Shown here in pieces: positions 5,955 to 62,824 of a stretch of 64,000 bases of DNA. Location: NCBI RefSeq assembly GCF_001677475.2, contig NZ_CP015229.1, one strand, 5' to 3'. Position 1 is the first letter of the stretch; the number at the start of each line of letters is the position of its first letter. Below the pieces are notes generated by a model, which had not been told where the DNA came from, searched no databases, and saw only the letters and a list, made by a program, of their open reading frames with translations. The DNA comes from Escherichia coli (GTDB lineage: Bacteria; Pseudomonadota; Gammaproteobacteria; Enterobacterales; Enterobacteriaceae). Both the position numbers and the translations under genes were made by a program.

Positions 5955-7444
5955 TGTTGTGCCTGGCGAATCTGTGCACCGACATCCTGTAGGCTGGCTT
6001 CAATGCGACCTAACCAGTCGCCAGGGATAAACAGACATTTTTGCTGTTCGCTGAATAAAGCGTGTTGCTTGCGCCAGTCGCTTTCAAGCTCTTCCAGTTG
6101 TTGTTTTATTTCACCTGGCAGACCTTCAGCCGATGAACCGGGAAGTGCCAGCGTACTGCCTTGTAAACTTACATCGCGTACAACAAGATGTTGGGCGCTA
6201 TCAACTTCCAGATTCAGTTTCTGGGCAAAGCCGATACCGTTTAGTTTGCCGCGAATTTCACCACCTTTACTCAGCCACTGTTCCAGCGCGCTACGCTCAA
6301 AGGAGATATGAACCACTTCCATATCATGCAGTTTTAACGGTTTTTGCAGCAGCAGAGTCAGAGTGGAAGCAGTAACGTTAACAGGGAGTTGATACTGCTG
6401 ACGACGGCTGAAAATGCCGCCCAGACGAATTACCGTTAAGGCTGTTTTATCGCTTTGTTGCTGCTGTAGTTGCAGGTGACGTTGCACAATCGCGCCCAGG
6501 CGGGTCAACATCCCTTGCTGTTGCCAGGCATGACCGGTCATCAATACATCAATTTGTTGTTGTATCAAATTCAGGCTTTGCGCGTCATACCACAGGCAAT
6601 CTTTCAGCAAAATGAGATCTACCGGGGCAACAGCACTGCGACCGCTAAAAAAGGCGCTGGCCTGCAATAATCGGATCGCTTTTTTCCAGCGACGATCCGA
6701 GACATAAGGCGCATCCGGTAATTTATCCAGTTGCTGGCGCAGCATAAAAATCAGCTCAAATACATGATCGGGCAGCGTAATTTCACCAATCTCTTTCTGC
6801 CAGCGTTCATATTCTTCATCTGTGACCTGCAAGGCATCAGGAACCGGATTGTCGTTTTCATCCTGTTGACTGGTCAGCATGGAGCGGAAATTCGCTTTAT
6901 CCTGCACTTTATCTAACCACAGACGAATCAGCATGCGGTCATATAACGCTTCCAGACTGCTGTCTGCTTCCGGCAGCTCGTTGGAGGCCGCCACCAGTAG
7001 ACGCATCGGGATTTTTTCTACGTGTGCACCGTTGCGGAACTGGCGCTCGTTAATGGCGGTGAGCAAGGTATTAAGAATTGCCGGGCCCGCTTTCCAGATC
7101 TCATCCAGAAAGACGATTTCTGCTTCCGGCAGGTAACCGTTGGTTAAACGTTCATAGCGCCCTTCATCTTTTAGCGCCTGAATAGAAAGGGGACCAAAAA
7201 CTTCTTCCGGCGTGGAGAAGCGGGTCATCAGATATTCAAACGCGCGGGCATTCTGAAAGGCGAATTTTAAGCGCCGGGCGATCAAACTTTTGGCAATACC
7301 TGGCGGGCCAAGGAGGAACACACTTTCACCACTTAATGCCGCTAATAAACACAAGCGGATGGCGTGGCTACGTTCATAAAGCCCCTTTTCCAACGAACTG
7401 CTCAGGCGGGAAATTCTTTCCGCTAATAAATGAGGGTGAGCCAT
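5948..7444 (-). CDS. ravA: MoxR-family AAA+ ATPase RavA (YieN)
   Basis: ORF-track 506 aa; canonical 498-aa start [14 protein letters not shown] at ATG 7442-7444; Walker A GPPGIAKS. Confidence 0.92.
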
Positions 7445-7666
7445 AATGAAGTGGCGTCCTTTCGTCAAAAGTTCTGCGTAAATTGCGAGTATAGACGTTT
7501 CTTGCTGGTGGCTAAAATAGTCTCAAAGGGGGGGCATTTTTCTTTGAGCCAGGTTAATGTGGCCGCATTTAGGAGTACGATTTTGCCGTTAATCGTGCAT
7601 ACTGTGCGCTTTTTTGTGGGCCAAGGGACTAAGCACACATTTCATATTTCAACGAAAGACTAGTCT

Positions 7667-9535
7667 ATGAGCACTGATAATAAGCAATCATTGCCCGCGA
7701 TTACCCTCGCGGCGATTGGAGTTGTCTACGGCGATATTGGTACCAGCCCGTTATATACACTTCGTGAATGTTTGTCCGGCCAGTTTGGTTTTGGCGTTGA
7801 ACGCGATGCCGTGTTTGGCTTTTTATCGCTGATCTTCTGGCTGCTAATCTTTGTGGTTTCCATTAAATATCTCACCTTCGTGATGCGGGCAGATAACGCC
7901 GGTGAAGGGGGGATCCTGACGTTGATGTCGCTTGCCGGGCGTAATACGTCGGCGCGAACCACATCAATGCTGGTGATTATGGGGTTAATCGGCGGCAGCT
8001 TTTTCTATGGTGAAGTCGTCATAACACCCGCTATTTCGGTGATGTCAGCCATTGAAGGTCTGGAAATCGTCGCCCCGCAGCTGGATACCTGGATAGTTCC
8101 CCTCTCAATTATCGTTCTCACTTTATTATTTATGATTCAAAAGCATGGCACGGCTATGGTCGGTAAGCTGTTTGCGCCGATCATGCTGACCTGGTTTTTG
8201 ATTCTGGCAGGACTGGGATTACGTAGCATTATTGCTAACCCGGAAGTGCTGCATGCGTTGAATCCGATGTGGGCGGTGCATTTCTTCCTTGAATACAAAA
8301 CGGTTTCTTTTATTGCATTAGGGGCAGTGGTGCTGTCGATTACGGGGGTCGAGGCGCTGTATGCTGATATGGGGCACTTTGGTAAGTTCCCTATTCGCCT
8401 GGCGTGGTTCACCGTCGTATTACCTTCCTTGACCCTTAATTACTTCGGTCAGGGAGCGTTGTTGTTAAAGAACCCGGAAGCGATTAAGAACCCGTTCTTC
8501 CTGTTGGCACCGGACTGGGCGCTGATCCCGCTGCTGATCATCGCCGCACTGGCAACGGTAATTGCCTCGCAGGCGGTTATCTCTGGCGTCTTCTCATTGA
8601 CGCGTCAGGCGGTACGTCTGGGATATTTGTCGCCGATGCGCATTATTCACACCTCCGAAATGGAGTCAGGGCAAATCTATATTCCGTTTGTGAACTGGAT
8701 GCTCTATGTCGCGGTCGTGATTGTGATTGTCAGCTTTGAGCACTCCAGCAACCTGGCGGCGGCGTACGGGATTGCGGTGACCGGAACCATGGTGCTGACG
8801 TCTATTCTCTCGACTACCGTGGCACGTCAGAACTGGCACTGGAATAAGTATTTTGTTGCGCTGATCCTGATTGCTTTCCTTTGTGTCGATATTCCATTGT
8901 TCACCGCTAACCTCGATAAACTGCTCTCCGGCGGCTGGTTGCCATTGAGCCTCGGTACGGTGATGTTTATCGTGATGACCACCTGGAAGAGCGAGCGTTT
9001 CCGCTTGCTGCGGCGGATGCATGAACATGGTAACTCTCTGGAAGCGATGATTGCTTCGCTGGAGAAATCACCGCCCGTTCGCGTGCCCGGGACCGCAGTG
9101 TATATGTCGCGTGCAATCAACGTCATTCCCTTTGCGCTGATGCATAACCTTAAACATAACAAGGTATTGCATGAGCGGGTGATTCTGTTAACTCTGCGCA
9201 CCGAAGACGCGCCATATGTCCATAACGTCCGTCGGGTACAGATTGAACAACTGTCGCCCACTTTCTGGCGCGTGGTGGCAAGTTATGGTTGGCGAGAAAC
9301 GCCAAACGTGGAAGAAGTATTCCACCGCTGCGGTCTGGAAGGATTAAGTTGCCGGATGATGGAAACCTCCTTCTTTATGTCGCATGAGTCGTTGATCCTC
9401 GGCAAACGCCCGTGGTATTTGCGTCTGCGCGGTAAGCTGTACTTGCTGTTGCAACGTAATGCGCTGCGTGCGCCGGATCAATTTGAAATCCCGCCAAACA
9501 GGGTTATCGAACTGGGTACTCAGGTCGAAATCTAA
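7667..9535 (+). CDS. kup: Low-affinity K+ uptake transporter Kup (TrkD)
   Basis: 622-aa [34 protein letters not shown], multi-pass membrane protein. Confidence 0.95.
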
Positions 9536-9541
9536 CGCCAG

Positions 9542-9577
9542 ACGCCTCCTTTCTCCATAAGGGGGCGTTTTTGTTTT
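9542..9577 (+). terminator. Intrinsic terminator downstream of kup
   Basis: 8-bp GC-rich stem ACGCCTCC/GGGGGCGT followed by TTTTTGTTTT, directly after the kup stop. Confidence 0.75.
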
Positions 9578-9670
9578 CATGGTTAATCACCATGTAAAAC
9601 GTTTCGAGGTTGATCACATTTCCGTAACGTCACGATGGTTTTCCCAACTCAGTCAGGATTAAACTGCGGG

Positions 9671-9690
9671 TCAGCGAAACGTTTCGCTGA
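9671..9690. promoter_or_regulatory. RbsR operator (perfect 20-bp palindrome TCAGCGAAAC|GTTTCGCTGA) at the rbs promoter
   Basis: Perfect inverted repeat read directly from sequence just upstream of the rbsD start; matches the LacI/GalR-type half-site expected for RbsR. Confidence 0.8.
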
Positions 9691-9701
9691 TGGAGAAAAA
9701 A

Positions 9702-10121
9702 ATGAAAAAAGGCACCGTTCTTAATTCTGATATTTCATCGGTGATCTCCCGACTGGGACATACCGATACGCTGGTGGTGTGTGATGCAGGTTTACCCATC
9801 CCCAAAAGTACAACGCGTATCGATATGGCATTAACCCAGGGTGTACCTTCTTTTATGCAGGTGCTGGGCGTCGTCACAAATGAAATGCAGGTCGAGGCAG
9901 CCATTATCGCGGAAGAGATCAAACAACATAATCCGCAACTCCACGAAACGTTGCTCACTCACCTTGAGCAGCTGCAAAAACACCAGGGAAATACCATTGA
10001 AATTCGTTACACCACGCATGAACAATTCAAACAACAAACCGCAGAAAGTCAGGCGGTAATTCGCAGCGGAGAATGTTCTCCGTATGCGAATATCATTCTC
10101 TGTGCTGGCGTGACGTTCTGA
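9702..10121 (+). CDS. rbsD: D-ribose pyranase RbsD
   Basis: 139-aa [34 protein letters not shown] from ATG 9702 (GGAG 6 nt upstream); ORF track starts 4 codons earlier. Confidence 0.93.
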
Positions 10122-10128
10122 GGCCGTC

Positions 10129-11634
10129 ATGGAAGCATTACTTCAGCTTAAAGGCATCGATAAAGCCTTCCCGGGCGTAAAAGCCCTCTCGGGTGCAGCG
10201 TTAAATGTCTATCCTGGCCGCGTGATGGCGCTGGTGGGCGAAAACGGTGCGGGTAAATCCACCATGATGAAAGTGCTTACGGGTATCTATACTCGCGATG
10301 CCGGTACGCTTTTATGGCTGGGGAAAGAAACGACGTTTACCGGGCCGAAATCTTCCCAGGAAGCCGGGATTGGGATTATCCATCAGGAACTGAACCTGAT
10401 CCCGCAGTTGACCATTGCCGAAAACATTTTCCTCGGTCGTGAGTTTGTTAATCGCTTTGGCAAAATTGACTGGAAAACCATGTATGCCGAAGCGGATAAA
10501 TTGCTGGCTAAACTTAACCTGCGCTTTAAAAGCGACAAGCTGGTGGGCGATCTTTCCATCGGTGACCAGCAAATGGTTGAAATTGCCAAAGTGCTGAGCT
10601 TTGAGTCGAAAGTCATCATTATGGATGAACCGACCGATGCGCTGACCGATACCGAAACCGAATCCTTGTTCCGCGTCATCCGCGAGCTGAAATCGCAAGG
10701 CCGCGGTATTGTCTATATTTCCCACCGCATGAAAGAAATCTTCGAGATTTGCGATGACGTTACCGTTTTTCGTGATGGGCAATTTATTGCTGAGCGTGAA
10801 GTAGCATCACTGACCGAAGATTCGCTGATTGAGATGATGGTGGGCCGCAAGCTGGAAGATCAATATCCGCACCTGGACAAAGCGCCAGGAGATATTCGCC
10901 TGAAAGTCGATAATCTCTGCGGACCTGGCGTTAACGATGTCTCTTTTATTTTACGCAAAGGCGAAATTCTTGGCGTCTCTGGTTTGATGGGCGCAGGTCG
11001 TACCGAACTGATGAAAGTGCTCTACGGCGCACTGCCGCGCACCAGCGGTTACGTCACCCTGGATGGGCATGAAGTTGTTACCCGTTCACCGCAGGATGGC
11101 CTGGCAAACGGCATTGTGTATATCTCCGAAGACCGTAAACGCGACGGTTTGGTGCTGGGCATGTCAGTAAAAGAGAATATGTCGCTGACCGCGCTGCGCT
11201 ACTTCAGCCGTACTGGTGGCAGTTTGAAGCATGCCGATGAACAGCAGGCAGTAAGTGATTTCATTCGTCTGTTTAATGTGAAAACGCCGTCGATGGAACA
11301 GGCAATTGGTCTGCTTTCCGGTGGCAATCAGCAAAAAGTGGCGATTGCCCGTGGTCTGATGACACGCCCCAAAGTGTTGATCCTCGATGAGCCTACCCGT
11401 GGCGTAGATGTCGGCGCGAAAAAAGAGATCTATCAACTGATTAACCAGTTCAAAGCCGATGGCTTGAGCATCATTCTGGTGTCATCGGAGATGCCAGAAG
11501 TATTAGGCATGAGCGATCGCATCATCGTCATGCATGAAGGGCATCTCAGCGGGGAATTTACTCGTGAGCAGGCCACCCAGGAAGTGTTAATGGCTGCCGC
11601 TGTGGGCAAGCTTAATCGCGTGAATCAGGAGTAA
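10129..11634 (+). CDS. rbsA: Ribose ABC transporter ATP-binding protein RbsA (duplicated ABC domains)
   Basis: 501-aa ORF with two Walker A motifs ([18 protein letters not shown]). Confidence 0.95.
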
Positions 11635-11638
11635 AAAA

Positions 11639-12604
11639 ATGACAACCCAGACTGTCTCTGGTCGCCGTTATTTCACGAAAGCGTGGCTGATGGAGCAGAA
11701 ATCGCTTATCGCTCTGCTGGTGCTGATCGCGATTGTCTCGACGTTAAGTCCGAACTTTTTCACCATCAATAACTTATTCAATATTCTCCAGCAAACTTCG
11801 GTGAACGCCATTATGGCGGTCGGGATGACGCTGGTGATCCTGACGTCGGGCATAGACTTGTCGGTAGGTTCTCTGTTGGCGCTAACCGGCGCAGTTGCTG
11901 CATCTATCGTCGGCATTGAAGTCAATGCGCTGGTGGCTGTCGCTGCTGCTCTCGCGTTAGGTGCCGCAATTGGTGCGGTAACAGGGGTGATTGTAGCGAA
12001 AGGTCGCGTCCAGGCGTTTATCGCTACGCTGGTTATGATGCTTTTACTGCGCGGCGTGACCATGGTTTATACCAACGGTAGCCCAGTGAATACCGGCTTT
12101 ACTGAGAACGCCGATCTGTTTGGCTGGTTTGGTATTGGTCGTCCGCTGGGCGTACCGACGCCAGTCTGGATCATGGGGATTGTCTTCCTCGCGGCCTGGT
12201 ACATGCTGCATCACACGCGTCTGGGGCGTTACATCTACGCGCTGGGCGGCAACGAAGCGGCAACGCGTCTTTCTGGTATCAACGTCAATAAAATCAAAAT
12301 CATCGTCTATTCTCTTTGTGGTCTGCTGGCATCACTGGCCGGGATCATTGAAGTGGCGCGTCTCTCCTCCGCACAACCCACGGCGGGGACTGGCTATGAG
12401 CTGGATGCTATTGCTGCGGTGGTTCTGGGCGGTACGAGTCTGGCGGGCGGAAAAGGTCGCATTGTTGGGACGTTGATCGGCGCATTAATTCTTGGCTTCC
12501 TTAATAATGGATTGAATTTGTTAGGTGTTTCCTCCTATTACCAGATGATCGTCAAAGCGGTGGTGATTTTGCTGGCGGTGCTGGTAGACAACAAAAAGCA
12601 GTAA
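11639..12604 (+). CDS. rbsC: Ribose ABC transporter permease RbsC
   Basis: 321-aa hydrophobic ORF MTTQTVSGRRYFTKAWLMEQKSLIALLVLIAIV. Confidence 0.95.
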   Translation: MTTQTVSGRRYFTKAWLMEQKSLIALLVLIAIVSTLSPNFFTINNLFNILQQTSVNAIMAVGMTLVILTSGIDLSVGSLLALTGAVAASIVGIEVNALVAVAAALALGAAIGAVTGVIVAKGRVQAFIATLVMMLLLRGVTMVYTNGSPVNTGFTENADLFGWFGIGRPLGVPTPVWIMGIVFLAAWYMLHHTRLGRYIYALGGNEAATRLSGINVNKIKIIVYSLCGLLASLAGIIEVARLSSAQPTAGTGYELDAIAAVVLGGTSLAGGKGRIVGTLIGALILGFLNNGLNLLGVSSYYQMIVKAVVILLAVLVDNKKQ

Positions 12605-12628
12605 TAACGACTACAGGACATCTTGAAT

Positions 12629-13489
12629 ATGAACATGAAAAAACTGGCTACCCTGGTTTCCGCTGTTGCGCTAAGCGCCACCGTCAGTGCGAATGCGATG
12701 GCAAAAGACACCATCGCGCTGGTGGTCTCCACGCTTAACAACCCGTTCTTTGTATCGCTGAAAGATGGCGCGCAGAAAGAGGCGGATGAACTTGGCTATA
12801 ACCTGGTGGTGCTGGACTCCCAGAACAACCCGGCGAAAGAGCTGGCGAACGTGCAGGACTTAACCGTTCGCGGCACCAAAATTCTGCTGATTAACCCGAC
12901 CGACTCCGACGCAGTGGGTAATGCTGTGAAGATGGCTAATCAGGCGAACATCCCGGTTATCACTCTTGACCGCCAGGCAACGAAAGGTGAAGTGGTGAGC
13001 CACATTGCATCTGATAACGTACTGGGCGGCAAAATCGCCGGTGATTACATCGCGAAGAAAGCGGGCGAAGGTGCCAAAGTTATCGAGCTGCAAGGCATTG
13101 CTGGTACATCCGCAGCCCGTGAACGTGGCGAAGGCTTCCAGCAGGCCGTTGCTGCTCACAAGTTTAATGTTCTTGCCAGCCAGCCAGCAGATTTTGATCG
13201 CACCAAAGGTTTGAACGTAATGCAGAACCTGTTGACCGCTCATCCGGATGTTCAGGCTGTATTTGCACAGAATGATGAAATGGCGCTGGGCGCGCTGCGC
13301 GCACTGCAAACTGCCGGTAAATCGGATGTGATGGTCGTCGGATTTGACGGTACACCGGATGGCGAAAAAGCGGTTAATGATGGCAAACTAGCAGCGACTA
13401 TCGCTCAGCTACCCGATCAGATTGGCGCGAAAGGCGAGAAAGTTCAGGCTAAGTATCCGGTTGATCTAAAACTGGTTGTTAAGCAGTAG
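12629..13489 (+). CDS. rbsB: Periplasmic ribose-binding protein RbsB (appears ~10 codons shorter than the K-12 protein; see findings)
   Basis: [25 protein letters not shown] signal peptide then [16 protein letters not shown]; ATG at 12629 with AGGA upstream; C-terminus reads [23 protein letters not shown]. Confidence 0.9.
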
Positions 13490-13571
13490 TTTTAATCAGG
13501 TTGTATGACCTGATGATGACATAAATACGTCATCGACAGATGAACGTGTAATATAAAGAAAAGCAGGGCAC

Positions 13572-13599
13572 GCGCCACCCTAACACGGTGGCGCATTTT
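13572..13599 (+). terminator. Hairpin (GCGCCACC / GGTGGCGC) plus short T-run between rbsB and rbsK; possible partial terminator or attenuator
   Basis: 8-bp GC stem with 7-nt loop followed by ATTTTA, read from sequence. Confidence 0.4.
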
Positions 13600-13614
13600 A
13601 TGGACATCCCGAAT

Positions 13615-14544
13615 ATGCAAAACGCAGGCAGCCTCGTTGTTCTTGGCAGCATTAATGCTGACCACATTCTTAATCTTCAATCTTTTCCTACCCCAGGCGA
13701 AACCGTAACCGGTAACCACTATCAGGTTGCATTTGGCGGCAAAGGCGCGAATCAGGCTGTGGCTGCTGGGCGTAGCGGTGCGAATATCGCGTTTATTGCC
13801 TGTACTGGCGATGACAGCATTGGCGAGAGCGTTCGCCAGCAGCTCGCCACTGATAACATCGATATTACTCCGGTCAGCGTGATCAAAGGCGAATCAACAG
13901 GTGTGGCGCTGATTTTTGTTAATGGCGAAGGTGAGAATGTCATTGGTATTCATGCCGGCGCTAATGCTGCCCTTTCCCCTGCGCTGGTGGAAGCGCAACG
14001 TGAGCGTATTGCCAACGCGTCAGCATTATTAATGCAGCTGGAATCACCACTCGAAAGTGTGATGGCAGCGGCGAAAATCGCCCATCAAAATAAGACTATC
14101 GTTGCGCTTAACCCGGCTCCGGCTCGCGAACTTCCTGACGAACTGCTAGCGCTGGTGGACATTATTACGCCAAACGAAACGGAAGCAGAAAAGCTCACCG
14201 GTATTCGTGTTGAAAATGATGAAGATGCAGCGAAGGCGGCGCAGGTACTGCATGAAAAAGGTATCCGTACTGTACTGATTACTTTAGGAAGTCGTGGTGT
14301 ATGGGCTAGCGTGAATGGTGAAGGTCAGCGCGTTCCTGGATTCCGGGTGCAGGCTGTCGATACCATTGCAGCCGGAGATACCTTTAACGGCGCGTTAATC
14401 ACGGCGTTGCTGGAAGAAAAACCATTGCCAGAGGCGATTCGGTTTGCCCATGCTGCCGCTGCGATTGCCGTAACACGTAAAGGCGCACAACCTTCCGTAC
14501 CGTGGCGTGAAGAGATCGACGTATTTTTAGACAGGCAGAGGTGA
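13615..14544 (+). CDS. rbsK: Ribokinase RbsK
   Basis: 309-aa MQNAGSLVVLGSINADHILNLQSFPTPGETVTG from ATG 13615; ORF track starts 9 codons earlier at a GTG. Confidence 0.93.
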   Translation: MQNAGSLVVLGSINADHILNLQSFPTPGETVTGNHYQVAFGGKGANQAVAAGRSGANIAFIACTGDDSIGESVRQQLATDNIDITPVSVIKGESTGVALIFVNGEGENVIGIHAGANAALSPALVEAQRERIANASALLMQLESPLESVMAAAKIAHQNKTIVALNPAPARELPDELLALVDIITPNETEAEKLTGIRVENDEDAAKAAQVLHEKGIRTVLITLGSRGVWASVNGEGQRVPGFRVQAVDTIAAGDTFNGALITALLEEKPLPEAIRFAHAAAAIAVTRKGAQPSVPWREEIDVFLDRQR

Positions 14545-14547
14545 CGC

Positions 14548-15540
14548 TTGGCTACAATGAAAGATGTTGCCCGTCTGGCGGGCGTTTCTACCTCAACAGT
14601 TTCTCACGTTATCAATAAAGATCGCTTCGTCAGTGAAGCGATTACCGCCAAAGTTGAAGCGGCGATTAAAGAACTCAATTACGCGCCATCAGCTCTGGCG
14701 CGTAGCCTCAAACTCAATCAAACACATACCATTGGCATGTTGATCACTGCCAGTACCAATCCTTTCTATTCAGAACTGGTGCGTGGCGTTGAACGCAGCT
14801 GCTTCGAACGCGGTTATAGTCTCGTCCTTTGCAATACCGAAGGCGATGAACAGCGGATGAATCGCAATCTGGAAACGCTGATGCAAAAACGCGTTGATGG
14901 CTTACTGTTACTGTGCACCGAAACGCATCAGCCTTCGCGTGAAATCATGCAACGTTATCCGACAGTGCCTACCGTGATGATGGACTGGGCTCCGTTCGAT
15001 GGCGACAGCGATCTTATTCAGGATAACTCGTTGCTGGGCGGAGACTTAGCAACGCAATATCTGATCGATAAAGGTCATACCCGTATCGCCTGTATTACCG
15101 GTCCGCTGGATAAAACTCCGGCGCGCCTGCGGTTGGAAGGTTATCGGGCGGCGATGAAACGTGCGGGTCTCAACATTCCTGATGGCTATGAAGTCACTGG
15201 TGATTTTGAATTTAATGGCGGGTTTGACGCCATGCGCCAACTGTTATCACATCCGCTGCGTCCTCAGGCCGTCTTTACCGGAAATGACGCTATGGCTGTT
15301 GGCGTTTACCAGGCGCTGTATCAGGCAGAGTTACAGGTTCCACAGGATATCGCGGTGATTGGCTATGACGATATCGAATTGGCAAGCTTTATGACGCCAC
15401 CATTAACCACTATCCACCAACCGAAAGATGAACTGGGGGAGCTGGCGATTGATGTACTCATCCATCGGATAACCCAGCCGACCCTTCAGCAACAACGATT
15501 ACAACTTACTCCGATTCTGATGGAACGCGGTTCGGCTTAG
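14548..15540 (+). CDS. rbsR: LacI-family ribose operon repressor RbsR
   Basis: 330-codon [35 protein letters not shown] (HTH); begins at TTG 14548. Confidence 0.92.
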
Positions 15541-16933
15541 ATTTACGCTGTCTTTTGATCAAATTATTACCATCGGTTGTTTTCAGAAGCATGAACATTG
15601 CTGCTGAAGCAACAGTAATAATGCCCATCGTGATAAACGTATAGTGGAATTGTTCTACAGTCGTTGTGCCTTCCATCCCTTCATAAACGCGAAGGACGGC
15701 CGCACTTACAGCAACGCCTAAACTGATCGACAGTTGCTGCGTGACCGCCAGAACACTGTTACCGCTGCTGGCGTTGTCATCGGTCAGATCGGCAAGTGTG
15801 ATGGTATTCATCGCGGTAAACTGCGTCGACATAGCCATCCCTAATATAAACAACGGCAAGATTAGCATCCATATCGCCATTGCCGGTGATTGCAAAGAGA
15901 ACTGAGCGATCATTAACCCAATAATCACCGTGATCCCCACTAATGTATGGCGATAGCCCAGACGACGTAAGACTTGGGTAACCATCGATTTTGCAATAAT
16001 GGAACCTAACGCTGTCGGTGCCATCATACAGCCGGCAATAAACGCCTGATAACCAAATCCTACCTGTAACATCAATGGCATAAGAAACGGTACGCAGCCG
16101 GTCCCCAGACGGGTTGCAATATTGCCTACGATACCGATCGAGAAAGTGCGGGTTTTAAATAAATCTAATGAAATTAATGGGTTTGGCGTGCGTCGTGCAT
16201 GGAGAATATAGAGAAGCAGTAACCCGATGCTGGTGACAATTACCGTCAAGGCAATCCAGCTGGCGACAATCTTTTCCCCGAATAGCTCTATTCCGCTTGA
16301 GAAGAGAACAAGGCTGAGGCCAAACAGCAAAAAGCCAGTGATATCGAATCTGCGTCGTGCGGTGGTGAAATTGGGCATATGTTTGCGCGCGTAAAGAAGG
16401 CCCGCAATACCTATGGGGATATTGATTAAAAATATCCAGTGCCAGGTTGCCCAAGTGACCAGCACGCCGCCAAGAACGGGGCCTAAAATTGGCCCCACCA
16501 GACCCGGCATGGCGACAAAATTCAATACCGGAAGAAGTTCATTACGAGGATAAGCACGCAGTAAGGCCAGCCGAGCAACAGGCATCATCATTGCGCCGCC
16601 TATCCCCTGAATAACCCGGAAGACAACCAGCTGTGGTAGCGAGTTGGAAAGTGCGCAGGCCAGAGAACCCAACGTGAACAGACTCACGGCAAGGGTAAAA
16701 ATGCGACGCGTACCGAAGCGATCGGCTAGCCATCCGCTTACCGGAATAAGCATCGCCACCGTCAGCGTATAACTGATGATGGCTGATTGCATCGCGAGAG
16801 GAGAACGATTAAGGCTATGAGCGATTGCGGGTAAGGCGGTATTCAGAATAGTGGCATCAAGTGCCTGCATGAAGAAGGCCATCGCCGCGATCCACGGCAA
16901 ACCCGACATACTGCGCTTCTTTTTATCGCTCAT
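15506..16933 (-). CDS. hsrA: MFS-family transporter HsrA (YieO)
   Basis: 475-aa hydrophobic [41 protein letters not shown]; 3' end overlaps rbsR by 35 nt (convergent). Confidence 0.9.
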
Positions 16934-16955
16934 TCAATGTCCTGTTATCGGGTTA

Positions 16956-17648
16956 TCACTTATCAGGTGAGCGTAGCAGCGCCTGACAAGCTTTAAATGC
17001 CGCGTCGCCATCGCTTTGGATAATCGCATCGACAATCGCCTGATGCAGATCCAGCTTTATCACTGTGTCGCTGGTAATTGACGTGAAGTAAGTGTGATAA
17101 ACTGAATGGAATAGCGAGGCGAATGAGGTCAAAAACGGATTGGCGCTCATTTCATAGATATGCTCATGCCAGGCCATATCGACTTCGATCCAGCGTTCAC
17201 GGCGAAAGTTCTCTTTTAATGCCGCCATTTCGGCCATTAACGTATTGAGATGCGCTTTCTGTTCTGCGGTGCCAACCGTTGCTGCCAGTAGGCAGGCTTG
17301 CGGCTCCAGACAGATACGCATAACCAGAAAGTGATCGATGACCTGATGAAAGTTCTCTTCTGTCATCCACCAGGTAAGCAATTCCTGATCAAGAAAATTC
17401 CAGTTCGATTGTGGCATTACCCGGGTACCAATTCGCGGTCGCGGTAAAACCATCCCTTTTGCCGTTAACGTTTTGACCGCTTCGCGTACCGCTGTACGAC
17501 TCACTCCAAATTGCTCGCCCAGCTCAATCTCACCGGGCAAAATGGTGCCGGGTTCATATTCACCTTTTAAGATCCGTTGCGCCAGCTTCTCAGCCAGAAC
17601 ATACGAAAGGTTTTTCTGTGCAGCTAACTGTTGTGCGCTTAAAGGCAT
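16956..17648 (-). CDS. yieP: GntR-family transcriptional regulator YieP
   Basis: 230-aa ORF with N-terminal wHTH (GEIELGEQFGVSRTAVREAVKTL). Confidence 0.9.
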   Translation of the reverse strand: MPLSAQQLAAQKNLSYVLAEKLAQRILKGEYEPGTILPGEIELGEQFGVSRTAVREAVKTLTAKGMVLPRPRIGTRVMPQSNWNFLDQELLTWWMTEENFHQVIDHFLVMRICLEPQACLLAATVGTAEQKAHLNTLMAEMAALKENFRRERWIEVDMAWHEHIYEMSANPFLTSFASLFHSVYHTYFTSITSDTVIKLDLHQAIVDAIIQSDGDAAFKACQALLRSPDK

Positions 17649-17774
17649 TACTAATCTTCCTTTTTCTTTTTATTCCTCCTTAGTATGCCACCAGGAAGTG
17701 TGATTACGGTTGCAAAAACGGCAAATTGCTTGTTTTATGGCACATTAACGGGGCTTTTGCTGAAAAAATGCGCG

Positions 17775-17828
17775 GTCAGAAAATTATTTTAAATTTCCTC
17801 TTGTCAGGCCGGAATAACTCCCTATAAT
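17775..17828 (+). promoter_or_regulatory. rrn P1 promoter with A/T-rich UP element (-35 TTGTCA 17801-17806, -10 TATAAT 17823-17828)
   Basis: TTGTCAGGCCGGAATAACTCCCTATAATGCGCCACCACTG is the canonical rrn P1 core, preceded by AAAATTATTTTAAATTTCCTC. Confidence 0.9.
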
Positions 17829-17917
17829 GCGCCACCACTGACACGGAACAACGGCAAACACGCCGCCGGGTCAGCGGGGTTCTCCTGAGAATCTCAACAG
17901 AGAAAAGCAAAAAATGC

Positions 17918-17945
17918 TTGACTCTGTAGCGGGAAAGCGTATTAT
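17918..17945 (+). promoter_or_regulatory. rrn P2 promoter (-35 TTGACT, -10 TATTAT)
   Basis: TTGACTCTGTAGCGGGAAAGCGTATTATGC matches rrn P2. Confidence 0.85.
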
Positions 17946-17982
17946 GCACACCCCGCGCCGCTGAGAAAAAGCGAAGCGGCAC

Positions 17983-17995
17983 TGCTCTTTAACAA
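17983..17995 (+). promoter_or_regulatory. rrn antitermination boxA (TGCTCTTTAACAA) in the 16S leader
   Basis: Exact boxA consensus read in the leader. Confidence 0.85.
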
Positions 17996-18126
17996 TTTAT
18001 CAGACAATCTGTGTGGGCACTCGAAGATACGGATTCTTAACGTCGCAAGACGAAAAATGAATACCAAGTCTCAAGAGTGAACACGTAATTCATTACGAAG
18101 TTTAATTCTTTGAGCATCAAACTTTT

Positions 18127-19668
<1,542 letters not shown>

Positions 19669-19753
19669 CCTTAAAGAAGCGTACTTTGCAGTGCTCACAC
19701 AGATTGTCTGATAGAAAGTGAAAAGCAAGGCGTCTTGCGAAGCAGACTGATAC

Positions 19754-19829
19754 GTCCCCTTCGTCTAGAGGCCCAGGACACCGCCCTTTCACGGCGGTAA
19801 CAGGGGTTCGAATCCCCTAGGGGACGCCA
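19754..19829 (+). tRNA. gltU: tRNA-Glu (UUC) in the 16S-23S spacer
   Basis: GTCCCCTTCGTCTAGAGGCCCAGGACACCGCCCTTTCACGGCGGTAACAGGGGTTCGAATCCCCTAGGGGACGCCA, 76 nt. Confidence 0.95.
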
Positions 19830-20022
19830 CTTGCTGGTTTGTGAGTGAAAGTCACCTGCCTTAATATCTCAAAATTCATCTTCGGGTGATGTTTGAGATA
19901 TTTGCTCTTTAAAAATCTGGATCAAGCTGAAAATTGAAACACTGAACAACGAAAGTTGTTCGTGAGTCTCTCAAATTTTCGCAACACGATGATGAATCGA
20001 AAGAAACATCTTCGGGTTGTGA

Positions 20023-22925
<2,903 letters not shown>

Positions 22926-23018
22926 ACAACGCCGAAGATGTTTTGGCGGATTGAGAGAAGATTTTCAGCCTGATACAGATTAAATCAGAACGCAGAAGCG
23001 GTCTGATGAAACAGAATT

Positions 23019-23138
23019 TGCCTGGCGGCCGTAGCGCGGTGGTCCCACCTGACCCCATGCCGAACTCAGAAGTGAAACGCCGTAGCGCCGATGGTAGTGT
23101 GGGGTCTCCCCATGCGAGAGTAGGGAACTGCCAGGCAT
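23019..23138 (+). rRNA. rrfC: 5S ribosomal RNA
   Basis: TGCCTGGCGGCCGTAGCGCGGTGGTCCCACCTGACCCCATGCCGAACTCAGAAGTGAAACGCCG...CTGCCAGGCAT, 120 nt. Confidence 0.96.
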
Positions 23139-23190
23139 CAAATTAAGCAGTAAGCCGGTCATAAAACCGGTGGTTGTAAAAGAATTCGGT

Positions 23191-23267
23191 GGAGCGGTAG
23201 TTCAGTCGGTTAGAATACCTGCCTGTCACGCAGGGGGTCGCGGGTTCGAGTCCCGTCCGTTCCGCCA
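23191..23267 (+). tRNA. aspT: tRNA-Asp (GUC)
   Basis: GGAGCGGTAGTTCAGTCGGTTAGAATACCTGCCTGTCACGCAGGGGGTCGCGGGTTCGAGTCCCGTCCGTTCCGCCA, 77 nt. Confidence 0.95.
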
Positions 23268-23275
23268 CCCTAATT

Positions 23276-23351
23276 AGGGGCGTAGTTCAATTGGTAGAGC
23301 ACCGGTCTCCAAAACCGGGTGTTGGGAGTTCGAGTCTCTCCGCCCCTGCCA
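23276..23351 (+). tRNA. trpT: tRNA-Trp (CCA)
   Basis: AGGGGCGTAGTTCAATTGGTAGAGCACCGGTCTCCAAAACCGGGTGTTGGGAGTTCGAGTCTCTCCGCCCCTGCCA, 76 nt. Confidence 0.95.
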
Positions 23352-23357
23352 GAAATC

Positions 23358-23387
23358 ATCCTTAGCGAAAGCTAAGGATTTTTTTTA
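23358..23387 (+). terminator. rrn operon intrinsic terminator
   Basis: ATCCTTAGC-GAAA-GCTAAGGAT hairpin followed by TTTTTTTT. Confidence 0.85.
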
Positions 23388-23445
23388 TCTGAAATAACCT
23401 CTCCGAAGTAAATCCTTCTACCGGCATCCTTGCCAGCCATTCAGA

Positions 23446-24285
23446 TTAATACACTTCATCCAGCACGTTAATTTTCAATAGATCGCGAATCAACGCATTT
23501 TTATCGCTATTTTGCAGCCATATGGCATAAAGCGGCCGTGAAAGTGTTGTGCTATCGACAACGGTATGCAGGCCGCCCTTTTTACGCGCCCAACTGACGG
23601 GTAGCCAAGTGCAACCATTAAGCGTCGCAATCTGTTGCTGTGCCAGTTCAGCAGAACTGGTTGTCAGAATGGGAACTTCGTCAGCACCGATCAAACCTGC
23701 CTCATGCTGTTGAAAATCTGGCCCCCATTCCAGTCGCAGATAGTTAAGATCTCCCTTTAGTTTGGAAGGGGCACTGGTATAAAGCGCTAAAGTGAAATAC
23801 CCGAGCAACTGACTGCTAAATTCGTCCATTTTGGGCGCTTCAGTAGTAATAAGAAGATCAAGCTGGCGTTCATGCAGCTGTTTTACCAGAGACTGCCGTT
23901 GGGCAATTCGCGCTTCGAACTGTAAGCCTGTATGGGCATCCTGATTTTTATACAAACGTCCCAGCCACTGATTAAGCATACATTCCCACAATGAGGCGCT
24001 GGCACCGATAGAAAACTCGTTATGTCGTGAGGTATGTGCCACCTCCTTACGGGCGGCCTGCCAGGTGCTCATGAGCGTTTCTGCATAAGGCAGTAGTTTT
24101 TCACCGGCAGCGGTTAAACGGATATTGTTTCTGTGGCGGGTGAAAAGGTTCACACCCAGTTGATTTTCCAGTTGTCTGATTCGAAAGCTCACTGCTGACT
24201 GGGTCAGGTAGAGCGATTCAGCCGCTCGACCAAAGTGACGCGTTCGGCTAACTTCCAGGAAAGTTTTTAACAATTCCGTATCCAC
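23446..24285 (-). CDS. hdfR: LysR-family transcriptional regulator HdfR
   Basis: 279-codon ORF (GTG start) [40 protein letters not shown], LysR HTH. Confidence 0.92.
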
Positions 24286-24352
24286 AGTGCTCTCCGCAAA
24301 ATTATTTGTCGTTATGATTTAAATGTTTTGTTTTACACTCTGTCAAGCGTAA

Positions 24353-24369
24353 CTAATACTCCGCGCCAT
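24353..24369. promoter_or_regulatory. maoS: Candidate maoS site (CTAATACTCCGCGCCAT) for MaoP-dependent Ori macrodomain organisation
   Basis: 17-mer in the hdfR-yifE divergent intergenic region matches the maoS sequence as I remember it; recalled from memory, not searched. Confidence 0.55.
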
Positions 24370-24403
24370 AACTAGCTCGGTCAAAGAATTAGGAGCGTGC
24401 AGG

Positions 24404-24742
24404 ATGGCGGAAAGCTTTACGACGACTAATCGATATTTCGACAATAAACATTATCCACGTGGATTCTCTCGTCATGGTGATTTCACCATCAAAGAGGCAC
24501 AACTGCTTGAGCGTCATGGTTATGCCTTCAATGAGTTGGATCTTGGCAAACGCGAGCCGGTTACCGAGGAAGAGAAACTCTTCGTAGCAGTATGCCGTGG
24601 CGAACGTGAGCCAGTGACAGAAGCAGAACGCGTGTGGTCCAAGTATATGACGCGTATCAAGCGTCCAAAACGTTTTCACACCCTTTCCGGCGGTAAACCG
24701 CAGGTTGAAGGTGCTGAAGACTACACCGATTCTGACGATTAA
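24404..24742 (+). CDS. maoP: Macrodomain Ori protein MaoP (YifE, UPF0438)
   Basis: 112-aa [45 protein letters not shown]; GGAG SD upstream. Confidence 0.92.
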
Positions 24743-24743
24743 T

Positions 24744-24769
24744 AAAAAGGGCGAAATGCCCTTTTTTTT
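24744..24769. terminator. Bidirectional intrinsic terminator between yifE (+) and yifB (-)
   Basis: AATAAAAA-GGGC-GAAAT-GCCC-TTTTTTTT: short GC stem flanked by an A-run and a T-run. Confidence 0.7.
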
Positions 24770-26288
24770 ATGTCAGTAGTTTTTGCAGATGGATGAGCAA
24801 ACGGTCAATGGCACGATAGCTAACTGCCTCCTGCAAATGCTGACGTGTGATAATGTCGGACTGATCAATATCAGCAATGGTTCGTGCAACTTTCAGTAAC
24901 CGCTGCCAGGCACGAATCGATAACCCCAGATGGATCAGCGTTTCTTCCAGCCACTGCGCATCTTCGCTCTCAAGCTTGCAGAATTGGCGTATTTCCGGAC
25001 TATCCAGCCAGGCATTCAGTTTATTCTGCCGCTTAAATTGGCGCTCTCTGGCGGCCATTACGCGTTGTTTAACGGTGGCGCTGCTTTCTCCCGGCACTAC
25101 CGTTTTACTCAAAATGCCGGGTGGCGGTAATGGGATCTCCAGTGAGAGATCGAAGCGGTCGAGAAAGGGACCAGAGAGTCGGTTGAGATAACGCAGCGTT
25201 TGCTCTGGTGTGCAGCGGTTATGGTTTCCCTGATAATGTCCGGTAGGGCTGGGATTCATCGCCGCAACAAGTTGGAAACGGGCTGGATAGGTTATTTTTG
25301 CTCGTGTGCGTGAAAGATGGATCTGCCCGGATTCAATCGGCTCTCGCAAGGCATCCAGTGTACGCCGTTCAAATTCAGGTAGCTCATCAAGAAAAAGCAC
25401 GCCGTTATGCGCCAGCGAAATTTCACCTGGCCCTGGAATTGCACCACCGCCCACCATCGCAGTTAACGACGCACTGTGATGAGGTGAGCGGAACGGGCGC
25501 TGCCGCCATTGTTTTTGTACTGATTCAGCATTTACCAGACTTAATATCGCTGCGCTCTCCAGTGCCTCTTCATTGCTTAAATCTGGCAACAGGCCATTAA
25601 TACGGCTGGCGAGCATTGTTTTACCTGTTCCCGGCGGCCCAATCAGTAAAAGGTTGTGCCCGCCAGCGGCGGTAATTTCCAGTCCTCGCTTTCCTTGTTC
25701 CTGACCGACAACATCACTGAGATCATGTTGTAGCGCCCGGGATACTGTATCAGTTGGTTTCGGGCGTTCGAGAACGTGCTTACCTTCCAGAAACGCACAG
25801 ACAGCCTGCAGATGATCGGCTATCAGGCATCCTTCACCGTTAATTAGCCCCACTTCATCTTCGTTATCTTTCGCGACGATAATTTTTCTACCTGCCTTAA
25901 TAGCTTCAGTTGCACTGGAAATTGCGCCGGGAACGCCACGCAGAGCGCCTGTAAGCGCCAGTTCTCCGACTAATTCATATTCATCTAACTTATTGGCTGT
26001 AAGCTGTTCTGAGGCCGCCAGCAACGCAATGGCGATAGGTAAATCATATCGTCCCCCTTCTTTTGGCAGATCGGCTGGAGCTAGGTTGATGGTGATTTTT
26101 TTCGCCGGATATTCATATCCGCTATTGATAATGGCGCTGCGCACGCGATCGCGAGCTTCTTTTACAGTTGTTTCTGGTAAGCCCACCATCGTTAAGCCGG
26201 GTAGACCTTTACTGATATGTACCTCAACAGTGATTGGGGGCGCATTTACTCCCAGGGCTGCGCGGGTATGAACAATTGACAGTGACAT
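24768..26288 (-). CDS. yifB: Mg-chelatase-like AAA+ ATPase YifB (ComM family)
   Basis: Canonical 506-aa MSLSIVHTRAALGVNAPPITVEVHISKGLPGL from ATG 26286-26288 (ORF track extends 10 codons upstream); Walker A GPPGTGKT. Confidence 0.9.
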   Translation of the reverse strand: MSLSIVHTRAALGVNAPPITVEVHISKGLPGLTMVGLPETTVKEARDRVRSAIINSGYEYPAKKITINLAPADLPKEGGRYDLPIAIALLAASEQLTANKLDEYELVGELALTGALRGVPGAISSATEAIKAGRKIIVAKDNEDEVGLINGEGCLIADHLQAVCAFLEGKHVLERPKPTDTVSRALQHDLSDVVGQEQGKRGLEITAAGGHNLLLIGPPGTGKTMLASRINGLLPDLSNEEALESAAILSLVNAESVQKQWRQRPFRSPHHSASLTAMVGGGAIPGPGEISLAHNGVLFLDELPEFERRTLDALREPIESGQIHLSRTRAKITYPARFQLVAAMNPSPTGHYQGNHNRCTPEQTLRYLNRLSGPFLDRFDLSLEIPLPPPGILSKTVVPGESSATVKQRVMAARERQFKRQNKLNAWLDSPEIRQFCKLESEDAQWLEETLIHLGLSIRAWQRLLKVARTIADIDQSDIITRQHLQEAVSYRAIDRLLIHLQKLLT

Positions 26289-41808: not shown

Positions 41809-41938
41809 AGTGTGGTAGAATATCAGCTTACTATTGCTTTACGAAAGCGTATCCGGTGAAATAAAGTCAACCTTTAGTTGGTTAATGTTACACCAACAAC
41901 GAAACCAACACGCCAGGCTTATTCCTGTGGAGTTATAT

Positions 41939-42268
41939 ATGAGCGATAAAATTATTCACCTGACTGACGACAGTTTTGACACGGATGTACTCAAAGCGGA
42001 CGGGGCGATCCTCGTCGATTTCTGGGCAGAGTGGTGCGGTCCGTGCAAAATGATCGCCCCGATTCTGGATGAAATCGCTGACGAATATCAGGGCAAACTG
42101 ACCGTTGCAAAACTGAACATCGATCAAAACCCTGGCACTGCGCCGAAATATGGCATCCGTGGTATCCCGACTCTGCTGCTGTTCAAAAACGGTGAAGTGG
42201 CGGCAACCAAAGTGGGTGCACTGTCTAAAGGTCAGTTGAAAGAGTTCCTCGACGCTAACCTGGCGTAA
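41939..42268 (+). CDS. trxA: Thioredoxin 1
   Basis: 109-aa [41 protein letters not shown] (WCGPC active site) from ATG 41939. Confidence 0.96.
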
Positions 42269-58552: not shown

Positions 58553-58629
<77 letters not shown>

Positions 58630-58686
58630 TTTAGTCCCGGCGCTTGAGCTGCGGTGGTAGTAATGCCGCGTAACAAGATTTGTAGT

Positions 58687-58763
58687 GGTGGCTATAGCTC
58701 AGTTGGTAGAGCCCTGGATTGTGATTCCAGTTGTCGTGGGTTCGAATCCCATTAGCCACCCCA
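58687..58763 (+). tRNA. hisR: tRNA-His (GUG), including the extra 5' G(-1)
   Basis: GGTGGCTATAGCTCAGTTGGTAGAGCCCTGGATTGTGATTCCAGTTGTCGTGGGTTCGAATCCCATTAGCCACCCCA, 77 nt. Confidence 0.95.
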
Positions 58764-58783
58764 TTATTAGAAGTTGTGACAAT

Positions 58784-58870
58784 GCGAAGGTGGCGGAATT
58801 GGTAGACGCGCTAGCTTCAGGTGTTAGTGTCCTTACGGACGTGGGGGTTCAAGTCCCCCCCCTCGCACCA
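58784..58870 (+). tRNA. leuT: tRNA-Leu (CAG)
   Basis: GCGAAGGTGGCGGAATTGGTAGACGCGCTAGCTTCAGGTGTTAGTGTCCTTACGGACGTGGGGGTTCAAGTCCCCCCCCTCGCACCA, 87 nt with long variable arm. Confidence 0.95.
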
Positions 58871-58912
58871 CGACTTTAAAGAATTGAACTAAAAATTCAA
58901 AAAGCAGTATTT

Positions 58913-58989
58913 CGGCGAGTAGCGCAGCTTGGTAGCGCAACTGGTTTGGGACCAGTGGGTCGGAGGTTCGAATCCTCTCTCGCCGACCA
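58913..58989 (+). tRNA. proM: tRNA-Pro (UGG)
   Basis: CGGCGAGTAGCGCAGCTTGGTAGCGCAACTGGTTTGGGACCAGTGGGTCGGAGGTTCGAATCCTCTCTCGCCGACCA, 77 nt. Confidence 0.95.
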
Positions 58990-62617: not shown

Positions 62618-62824
62618 GTAGATGCTCATTCCATCTCTTATGTTCGCCTTAGTGCCTCATAAACTCCGGAATGACGCAGAGCCGTTTACGGTGCTTATCG
62701 TCCACTGACAGATGTCGCTTATGCCTCATCAGACACCATGGACACAACGTTGAGTGAAGCACCCACTTGTTGTCATACAGACCTGTTTTAACGCCTGCTC
62801 CGTAATAAGAGCAGGCGTTTTTTT
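62618..62824 (+). ncRNA. glmZ: Small RNA GlmZ (RyiA/SraJ), post-transcriptional activator of glmS
   Basis: GTAGATGCTCATTCCATCTCTTATGTTCGCCTTAGTGCC ... ACGCCTGCTCCGTAATAAGAGCAGGCGTTTTTTT matches GlmZ as recalled, with terminal intrinsic terminator; -10-like CATAAT just upstream. Confidence 0.85.

Follow-up and report, generated by a model that had tools for sequence, protein, structure and literature searches.

The deletion spectrum of lacI, reportedly described by Albertini, Farabaugh and Miller, includes spontaneous deletions that arise when strands misalign at short direct repeats. The frequency of misalignment depends on both the length of the repeats and their proximity. In the long-term evolution experiment (LTEE) with E. 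coli B, losses of rbs take the form of large IS150-mediated deletions that take out the operon in whole or in part (PMC4173774; Cooper et al. 2001). RbsB itself, the periplasmic ribose-binding protein, has been dissected in a near-complete alanine scan, given in mature numbering, which read signalling via the Trz1 hybrid receptor and not transport (Reimer et al. 2017, PMC5557919). In that study D89, R141, N190 and D215 are named as pocket residues, the P237A, P262A and D264A mutants were poorly inducible, I240A and E255A were semi-constitutive, and the ten single-Ala mutants in the segment 244–254 were all wild-type-like (7.9–10.3-fold induction vs 8.3-fold; PMC5557919). The K29A mutant was non-inducible (0.85-fold vs 8.3-fold), with a periplasmic abundance of 0.21 of wild type (Reimer et al. 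2017, PMC5557919). The authors drew attention to K29 and E255, a pair of exposed charged residues that share one outer part of the N-domain and whose phenotypes are opposite (PMC5557919).

The rbsB allele described here (delta-10) encodes a protein ten residues shorter than the one studied in those experiments. It lies in the window, by which we mean the whole stretch of 64,000 nucleotides of E. coli DNA that was analysed, among the following features.

9702-10121, plus strand: rbsD, upstream, full length
10129-11634, plus strand: rbsA, upstream, full length
11639-12604, plus strand: rbsC, upstream, full length (span of rbsD to rbsC, 9702..12604)
12629..13489, plus strand: rbsB coding sequence, delta-10 allele, 286 codons and a stop (ATG at 12629, stop codon at 13487-13489); this ATG is the annotated start in relatives, and TTG at 12623 is an upstream extension in the list of open reading frames
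12629..12703, plus strand: signal peptide, 25 codons, the same as in the reference; the mature protein begins with KDT
12788..12790, plus strand: codon 54, GAA (Glu) vs AAA (Lys), giving K54E, or K29E in the mature protein
13412..13456, plus strand: diagnostic junction 45-mer
13429..13436, plus strand: retained 8-bp repeat GAAAGGCG, the deletion junction
13572..13594, plus strand: GC-rich hairpin of 8 pairs followed by the T-run ATTTTAT, in the rbsB-rbsK spacer, terminator- or attenuator-like
13615-14544, plus strand: rbsK, downstream, full length
14548-15540, plus strand: rbsR, downstream, full length (span of rbsK to rbsR, 13615..15540)

The gene order is that of the standard E. coli kup-rbsDACBKR-mdtD-yieP-rrn region, with rbsB placed between rbsC and rbsK both in the ORF map of the window and in the annotated syntenic locus of strain N1420, and the rest of the rbs operon is full length both in the window and in the compared loci. 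The spacer hairpin is untouched by the deletion; the GTG start given for rbsK in the list of open reading frames (13588) falls inside it, and the annotated start is at 13615. Since the deletion is in frame, no polar effect on rbsK or rbsR is expected. Further along, Rfam matches at gathering level mark a complete rRNA operon with tRNAs (18127-23348), a TrxA 5' UTR thermometer (41869-41968), a four-tRNA cluster (58553-58986) and the GlmZ sRNA (62618-62824), all of them in keeping with this part of the chromosome. An uninterrupted ORF of 548 aa (26879-28525) stands 3' of a leader-like Rfam match (26570-26859), a position that fits an intact ilvG, a gene that is frameshifted in K-12.

By sequence, genomic context and pocket residues, the delta-10 product classes as a member of the RbsB equivalog family. 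It scores 557.8 bits against NCBIfam NF007936 (cut-off 337; wild type 593.8), its Sec signal peptide and the ligand-pocket residues D89, R141, N190 and D215 are all intact, and in phmmer alignments to the PDB its residue 26 matches the first residue of the mature chains.

The initial annotation had proposed that rbsB is about 10 codons shorter than in K-12 owing to an in-frame 30-bp deletion that removed VETADKVLKG. This was borne out at both the protein and the DNA level. A phmmer search against the mature E. coli RbsB of 271 aa (PDB 1urp/2dri; E = 2.3e-157) left one 10-residue gap, placed at ...QIGAK(gvetadkvlk)GEKVQ..., so that the reference is longer by 10 residues, and the K-12 sequence given in that annotation, with its 296 aa, was correct. 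The segment lost is mature 245-254 (VETADKVLKG), with equivalent placements at precursor 268-277, 269-278 or 270-279 (mature 243-252, 244-253 or 245-254). The pairwise DNA alignment with strain N1420 contains a single 30-bp gap and no further indel; besides the gap, the two rbsB genes differ by five synonymous changes and by a single non-synonymous one, 12788 A>G. By megablast rbsB is present in 5,398 of the 5,426 complete RefSeq E. coli genomes, and among the matches listed 30 of 30 cover 1002 bp against the 972-bp query and are split in two pieces. The deleted state was searched for with a 45-nt probe centred on the junction (13412-13456), designed so that neither arm by itself extends far past the 28-base seed; the junction was covered over at least 80% of its length in 0 of the 5,426 complete genomes, and a probe of the same kind, used as a positive control for the design, matched 1,567 genomes at full length. 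All 5,398 complete genomes with rbsB encode the 10 additional residues. An exact scan of metagenome contigs for the 26-nt junction gave no match; the junction k-mer of the deleted allele is ATTGGCGCGAAAGGCGAGAAAGTTCA.

The anatomy of the site is that of a deletion between direct repeats. Undeleted alleles (strain N1420 and L003, a close relative described below) read GCGC-GAAAGGCG-(22 bp)-GAAAGGCG-AGAAAG, with GAAAGGCG-TTGAAACCGCAGATAAAGTGCT-GAAAGGCG spelled out at this point in L003, and the window has one GAAAGGCG. The length lost equals one repeat and the spacer (8 + 22 = 30), and the 22-bp spacer is unique sequence rather than a tandem duplicate. Slippage between direct repeats with one copy kept had already been suggested, and this part of the suggestion stands; the repeat is 8 bp long and not the 7-bp AAAGGCG, and the copy that remains occupies 13429-13436 (the junction had been placed at about 13431-13439). 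Counting the direct repeats of wild-type rbsB that form in-frame pairs of at least 8 bp within 90 bp gave four pairs: AACAACCCG (9 bp, offset 87 bp), CTGGTGGT (8 bp, offset 84 bp), GGCGAAGG (8 bp, offset 63 bp) and, at the deletion site, GAAAGGCG (8 bp, offset 30 bp). The last is the closest-spaced by far and therefore should be the most slippage-prone in-frame site of rbsB. Misalignment of the two GAAAGGCG copies, through replication slippage or microhomology-mediated deletion, would drop one copy together with the spacer and yield a recent, derived in-frame allele. We infer this mechanism from the repeat anatomy and from the recurrence described below; that a deletion took place, its polarity and its repeat-mediated nature are near-certain.

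Other in-frame deletions of RbsB occur in the protein database. They remove 3-25 aa, are scattered along the protein and are singletons of E. coli and Salmonella. A repeat-mediated origin was considered for them and rejected, as the microhomology found on N1420 DNA is merely 0-3 bp; delta-10 is thus the clean slippage case among in-frame rbsB deletions. Several of the others come from short ENA or metagenomic contigs and may have been produced by errors of assembly or gene calling.

The polarity of the change follows from the orthologs. RbsB is 295-296 aa long in Salmonella, Enterobacter, Cronobacter, Buttiauxella, Cedecea and Edaphovirga, and the orthologs all keep GV(E/Q/D)TADKVLKG, with G244, L252, K253 and G254 invariant in the sample. 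As the segment is kept in all of them, the state in the window is a derived deletion. The exact 286-aa protein is found in NCBI under four independent accessions (ANO91713.1, on a 5.50-Mb contig, EFI6952655.1, EKA1090363.1, ELW6973414.1) and on 13 contigs in all, which excludes an assembly artefact.

The age of the deletion can be judged from the draft assembly GCA_018682865.1 (L003), which carries a full-length rbsB with K54E and, over 11,200 bp, is distinguished from the window by a single SNP and by the presence of the 30 bp. Because this relative is one SNP away yet undeleted, the deletion must be very recent and must have arisen on a K54E allele. The sole SNP is at 17186, where L003 has T and the window, like every other locus, has C; it lies within a 230-aa ORF of the GntR family on the minus strand (16956-17648). 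An identical deletion, with K54 kept, is present in GCA_012211865.1 ('E. coli O156'; L002, 6001-6861), which is 137 SNPs away from the window over 11.2 kb; two of the discordant SNPs bracket the junction, 13375 lying 53 bp upstream of it and 13468 lying 32 bp downstream. This divergence, reaching so close to the junction on both sides, indicates that the deletion arose at least twice independently. Common descent or recombination was rejected as the source of the shared junction, since a shared tract would need to be shorter than about 125 bp. Exact look-up retrieved both intermediates as proteins, namely full-length K54E (P0138, 11 contigs) and delta-10 with K54 (P0151, EEZ6490481.1). The best identity to the complete RefSeq E. 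coli genomes (5,426) is 99.0% for window positions 7000-27000 and 98.7% for 36000-58000; the source lineage is unrepresented among those genomes or was held out of the collection, and a nearly identical draft assembly (L003) exists.

The K54E substitution, absent from the initial annotation, is the one residue exchange that separates the protein from the commonest E. coli RbsB allele. Position 54 is Lys in 21 of 22 orthologs and Gln in the remaining one, and neither GAA nor GAG was found at codon 54 in any of the 5,426 complete RefSeq E. coli genomes. The full-length K54E protein nevertheless occurs in three divergent DNA backgrounds (L003, L004 and L005). In L005 the Glu codon is GAG, and the Lys codon of its background, AAG, is carried by 1,567 of the 5,426 genomes. 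With two routes, AAA>GAA and AAG>GAG, K29E must have arisen at least twice, and the idea that it is private to the lineage of the window was discarded on account of the three backgrounds and two Glu codons. By analogy with K29A, the K29E allele is likely to be impairing. E255, the residue paired with K29 in the alanine scan, directly follows the deleted block.

In sequence the deleted block lies near the C-terminus, as had been noted at the outset; structurally, it belongs to the N-terminal domain, where it forms much of the last helix, which sits between hinge strands two and three. In the wild-type AlphaFold2 (AF2) model this helix spans precursor residues 262-277 (mature 237-252) and is followed by strands 285-288 and 290-294. 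Between 8 and 10 of its 16 residues (about 60%) are missing from delta-10, and the remnant directly precedes the third hinge segment (mature P262, D264). Both proteins were modelled on the same 22-sequence alignment, with the wild type as the matched control, and compared with other structures and profiles as follows.

Mean pLDDT: wild type 83.8; delta-10 63.1
pLDDT of the C-terminal ~45 residues: wild type 86-95 (precursor 241-296); delta-10 23-47
Regular structure past residue 250: wild type, yes; delta-10, none
Foldseek vs 2DRI, TM (normalised to 2DRI) and rmsd: wild type 0.84 and 3.3 Å; delta-10 0.68 and 9.2 Å
Columns aligned to other ribose-binding proteins: wild type ~270; delta-10 ~230
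Pfam Peripla_BP_4 (PF13407) positions covered: wild type 1-258 of 258; delta-10 1-246 of 258

These values are to be read as those of a method that is no stability predictor, applied to a shallow alignment, and the five AF2 models spread widely (49-84 for the wild type, 51-63 for delta-10). With the conserved helix truncated, the delta-10 chain is predicted to fall short of a complete two-lobed type I periplasmic-binding-protein fold.

The ten wild-type-like alanine mutants imply that no individual side chain in 244-254 is essential; the loss in delta-10 is one of backbone length and of packing, with no contact residue involved. A chain shortened in this way would probably fail to finish the N-domain or to bring the last hinge and the C-terminal strands into their correct positions. 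RbsB would then most likely be unstable or without function, and the cell, its rbsDACBKR operon otherwise intact, would lose high-affinity uptake of ribose and Trg-mediated chemotaxis towards it; the deletion landed on an allele already bearing K29E. Structure prediction, conservation and published mutagenesis together suggest that delta-10 RbsB is probably a loss-of-function protein. For the reading as a whole, i.e., a recent slippage deletion that left RbsB defective while the remainder of the rbs operon stayed intact, we would give a probability of roughly 0.7.

The alternative that survives best is that the deletion is tolerated, so that RbsB still folds, binds ribose and docks to RbsC and Trg, and the shorter protein is a neutral length polymorphism. 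The behaviour of the ten alanine mutants agrees with this, as does the fact that the ligand-binding residues and the other genes of the operon are all intact, and the family score lies far over the RbsB equivalog cut-off. Against it, the helix is missing in no ortholog or solved homolog, hinge or signalling positions flank the deletion on both sides, and the AF2 model, set beside that of the matched wild type, loses its C-terminal 45 residues entirely. The occurrence of the allele on at least 13 contigs from different submitters means that it is not rapidly lethal or purged, which speaks for a tolerated change; with an undeleted relative only one SNP away, however, persistence says little about fitness and the intact operon is uninformative on selection. 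On balance we consider a tolerated deletion unlikely.

A bolder proposal takes one of two forms. Either the GAAAGGCG pair acts as a switch-off for RbsB, hit repeatedly along with K29E where a niche favours the loss of ribose sensing or uptake, or K29E and delta-10 together give a folded protein with altered docking to Trg or RbsC. That one of the two holds seems distinctly improbable. If true, the GAAAGGCG switch-off would be the natural counterpart of the parallel loss of rbs in the long-term evolution experiment.

The first form, in which RbsB loss is selected in some niches, with the repeat as a ready way to it and K29E and then delta-10 as successive adaptive hits, draws on recurrence. The deletion has at least two independent origins, as does K29E (AAA>GAA and AAG>GAG), many other in-frame rbsB deletions appear as database singletons, and rbs deletions were fixed in 12/12 LTEE populations with a small fitness benefit (PMC4173774). 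With very many E. coli and Salmonella assemblies available, however, a neutral process would also be expected to produce recurrent transitions and slippage events, rare as these are. Moreover, either change is found in 0 of the 5,426 complete genomes, the metagenome scan for the junction returned no match, and the other deletions are without microhomology, many of them on short metagenomic contigs. We hold selected loss to be quite improbable, its probability overlapping with that of the main reading.

The second form, a compensatory pair on the same outer N-domain face that would leave RbsB functional with an altered partner interaction, is suggested by the pairing of K29 and E255 in the alanine scan, by the position of E255 next to the deletion and by the combination of both changes in the window allele. 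Yet natural sequences carry each change by itself, L002 having delta-10 with K54 and L003-L005 having full-length K54E, so neither requires the other, and two independent hits would account just as well for K29E having come before delta-10; we regard a compensatory relationship as very improbable. A sequencing or assembly artefact, which could in principle result from short repeats being collapsed, or 30 bp inserted or duplicated in the reference, is scarcely credible given the identical protein in four NCBI accessions and Logan assemblies (13 contigs), the identical junction in the unrelated assembly L002, the unique spacer and outgroups that all have 295-296 aa with the segment.

The reading that we prefer, a recent slippage deletion leaving a defective RbsB, stays wholly within known biology. 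The gene, the protein, its structure and the mutational mechanism are textbook matter, and NCBI already lists a protein identical to this one over its 286 aa by the standard name 'ribose ABC transporter substrate-binding protein RbsB [Escherichia coli]'. A literature search on in-frame rbsB deletions in E. coli found no paper describing the delta-10 allele. Past strain-level annotation the allele matters little. Pipelines annotate delta-10 as normal RbsB, though it is probably non-functional, and in-frame microdeletions evade pseudogene flags. The carrier and its one-SNP relative form a nearly isogenic natural pair bearing on the role of the last N-domain helix in folding, in a protein that is a much-used biosensor scaffold. 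Recurrent delta-10 and recurrent K29E could also serve as two markers for surveying relaxed or negative selection on ribose sensing.

Set against known systems, the window allele is closest to K-12 RbsB (2DRI closed, 1URP open), with which it shares the gene, the operon position, the signal peptide, the pocket residues and 99% identity outside the gap. It differs in lacking mature residues 245-254 and in carrying K29E; in addition, precursor position 192 is T in the window and in most E. coli, whereas it is I in K-12. With the K29A and E255A mutants it has in common the affected face of the outer N-domain, as it alters K29 itself and loses the ten residues before E255, but Lys is replaced by Glu instead of Ala, and a backbone deletion stands in place of a side-chain change.

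The event resembles lacI-type deletions in its exact flanking repeats, of which one copy is kept while a repeat and the spacer are lost, and in its independent recurrence at the same site. Unlike that set, it is small and in frame and comes from natural isolates rather than from a selected mutant collection. With the loss of rbs in the LTEE it shares the parallel, repeated mutational loss in ribose utilisation genes; there a benefit was demonstrated in glucose medium, whereas the window presents a 30-bp event in rbsB alone, with no IS element.
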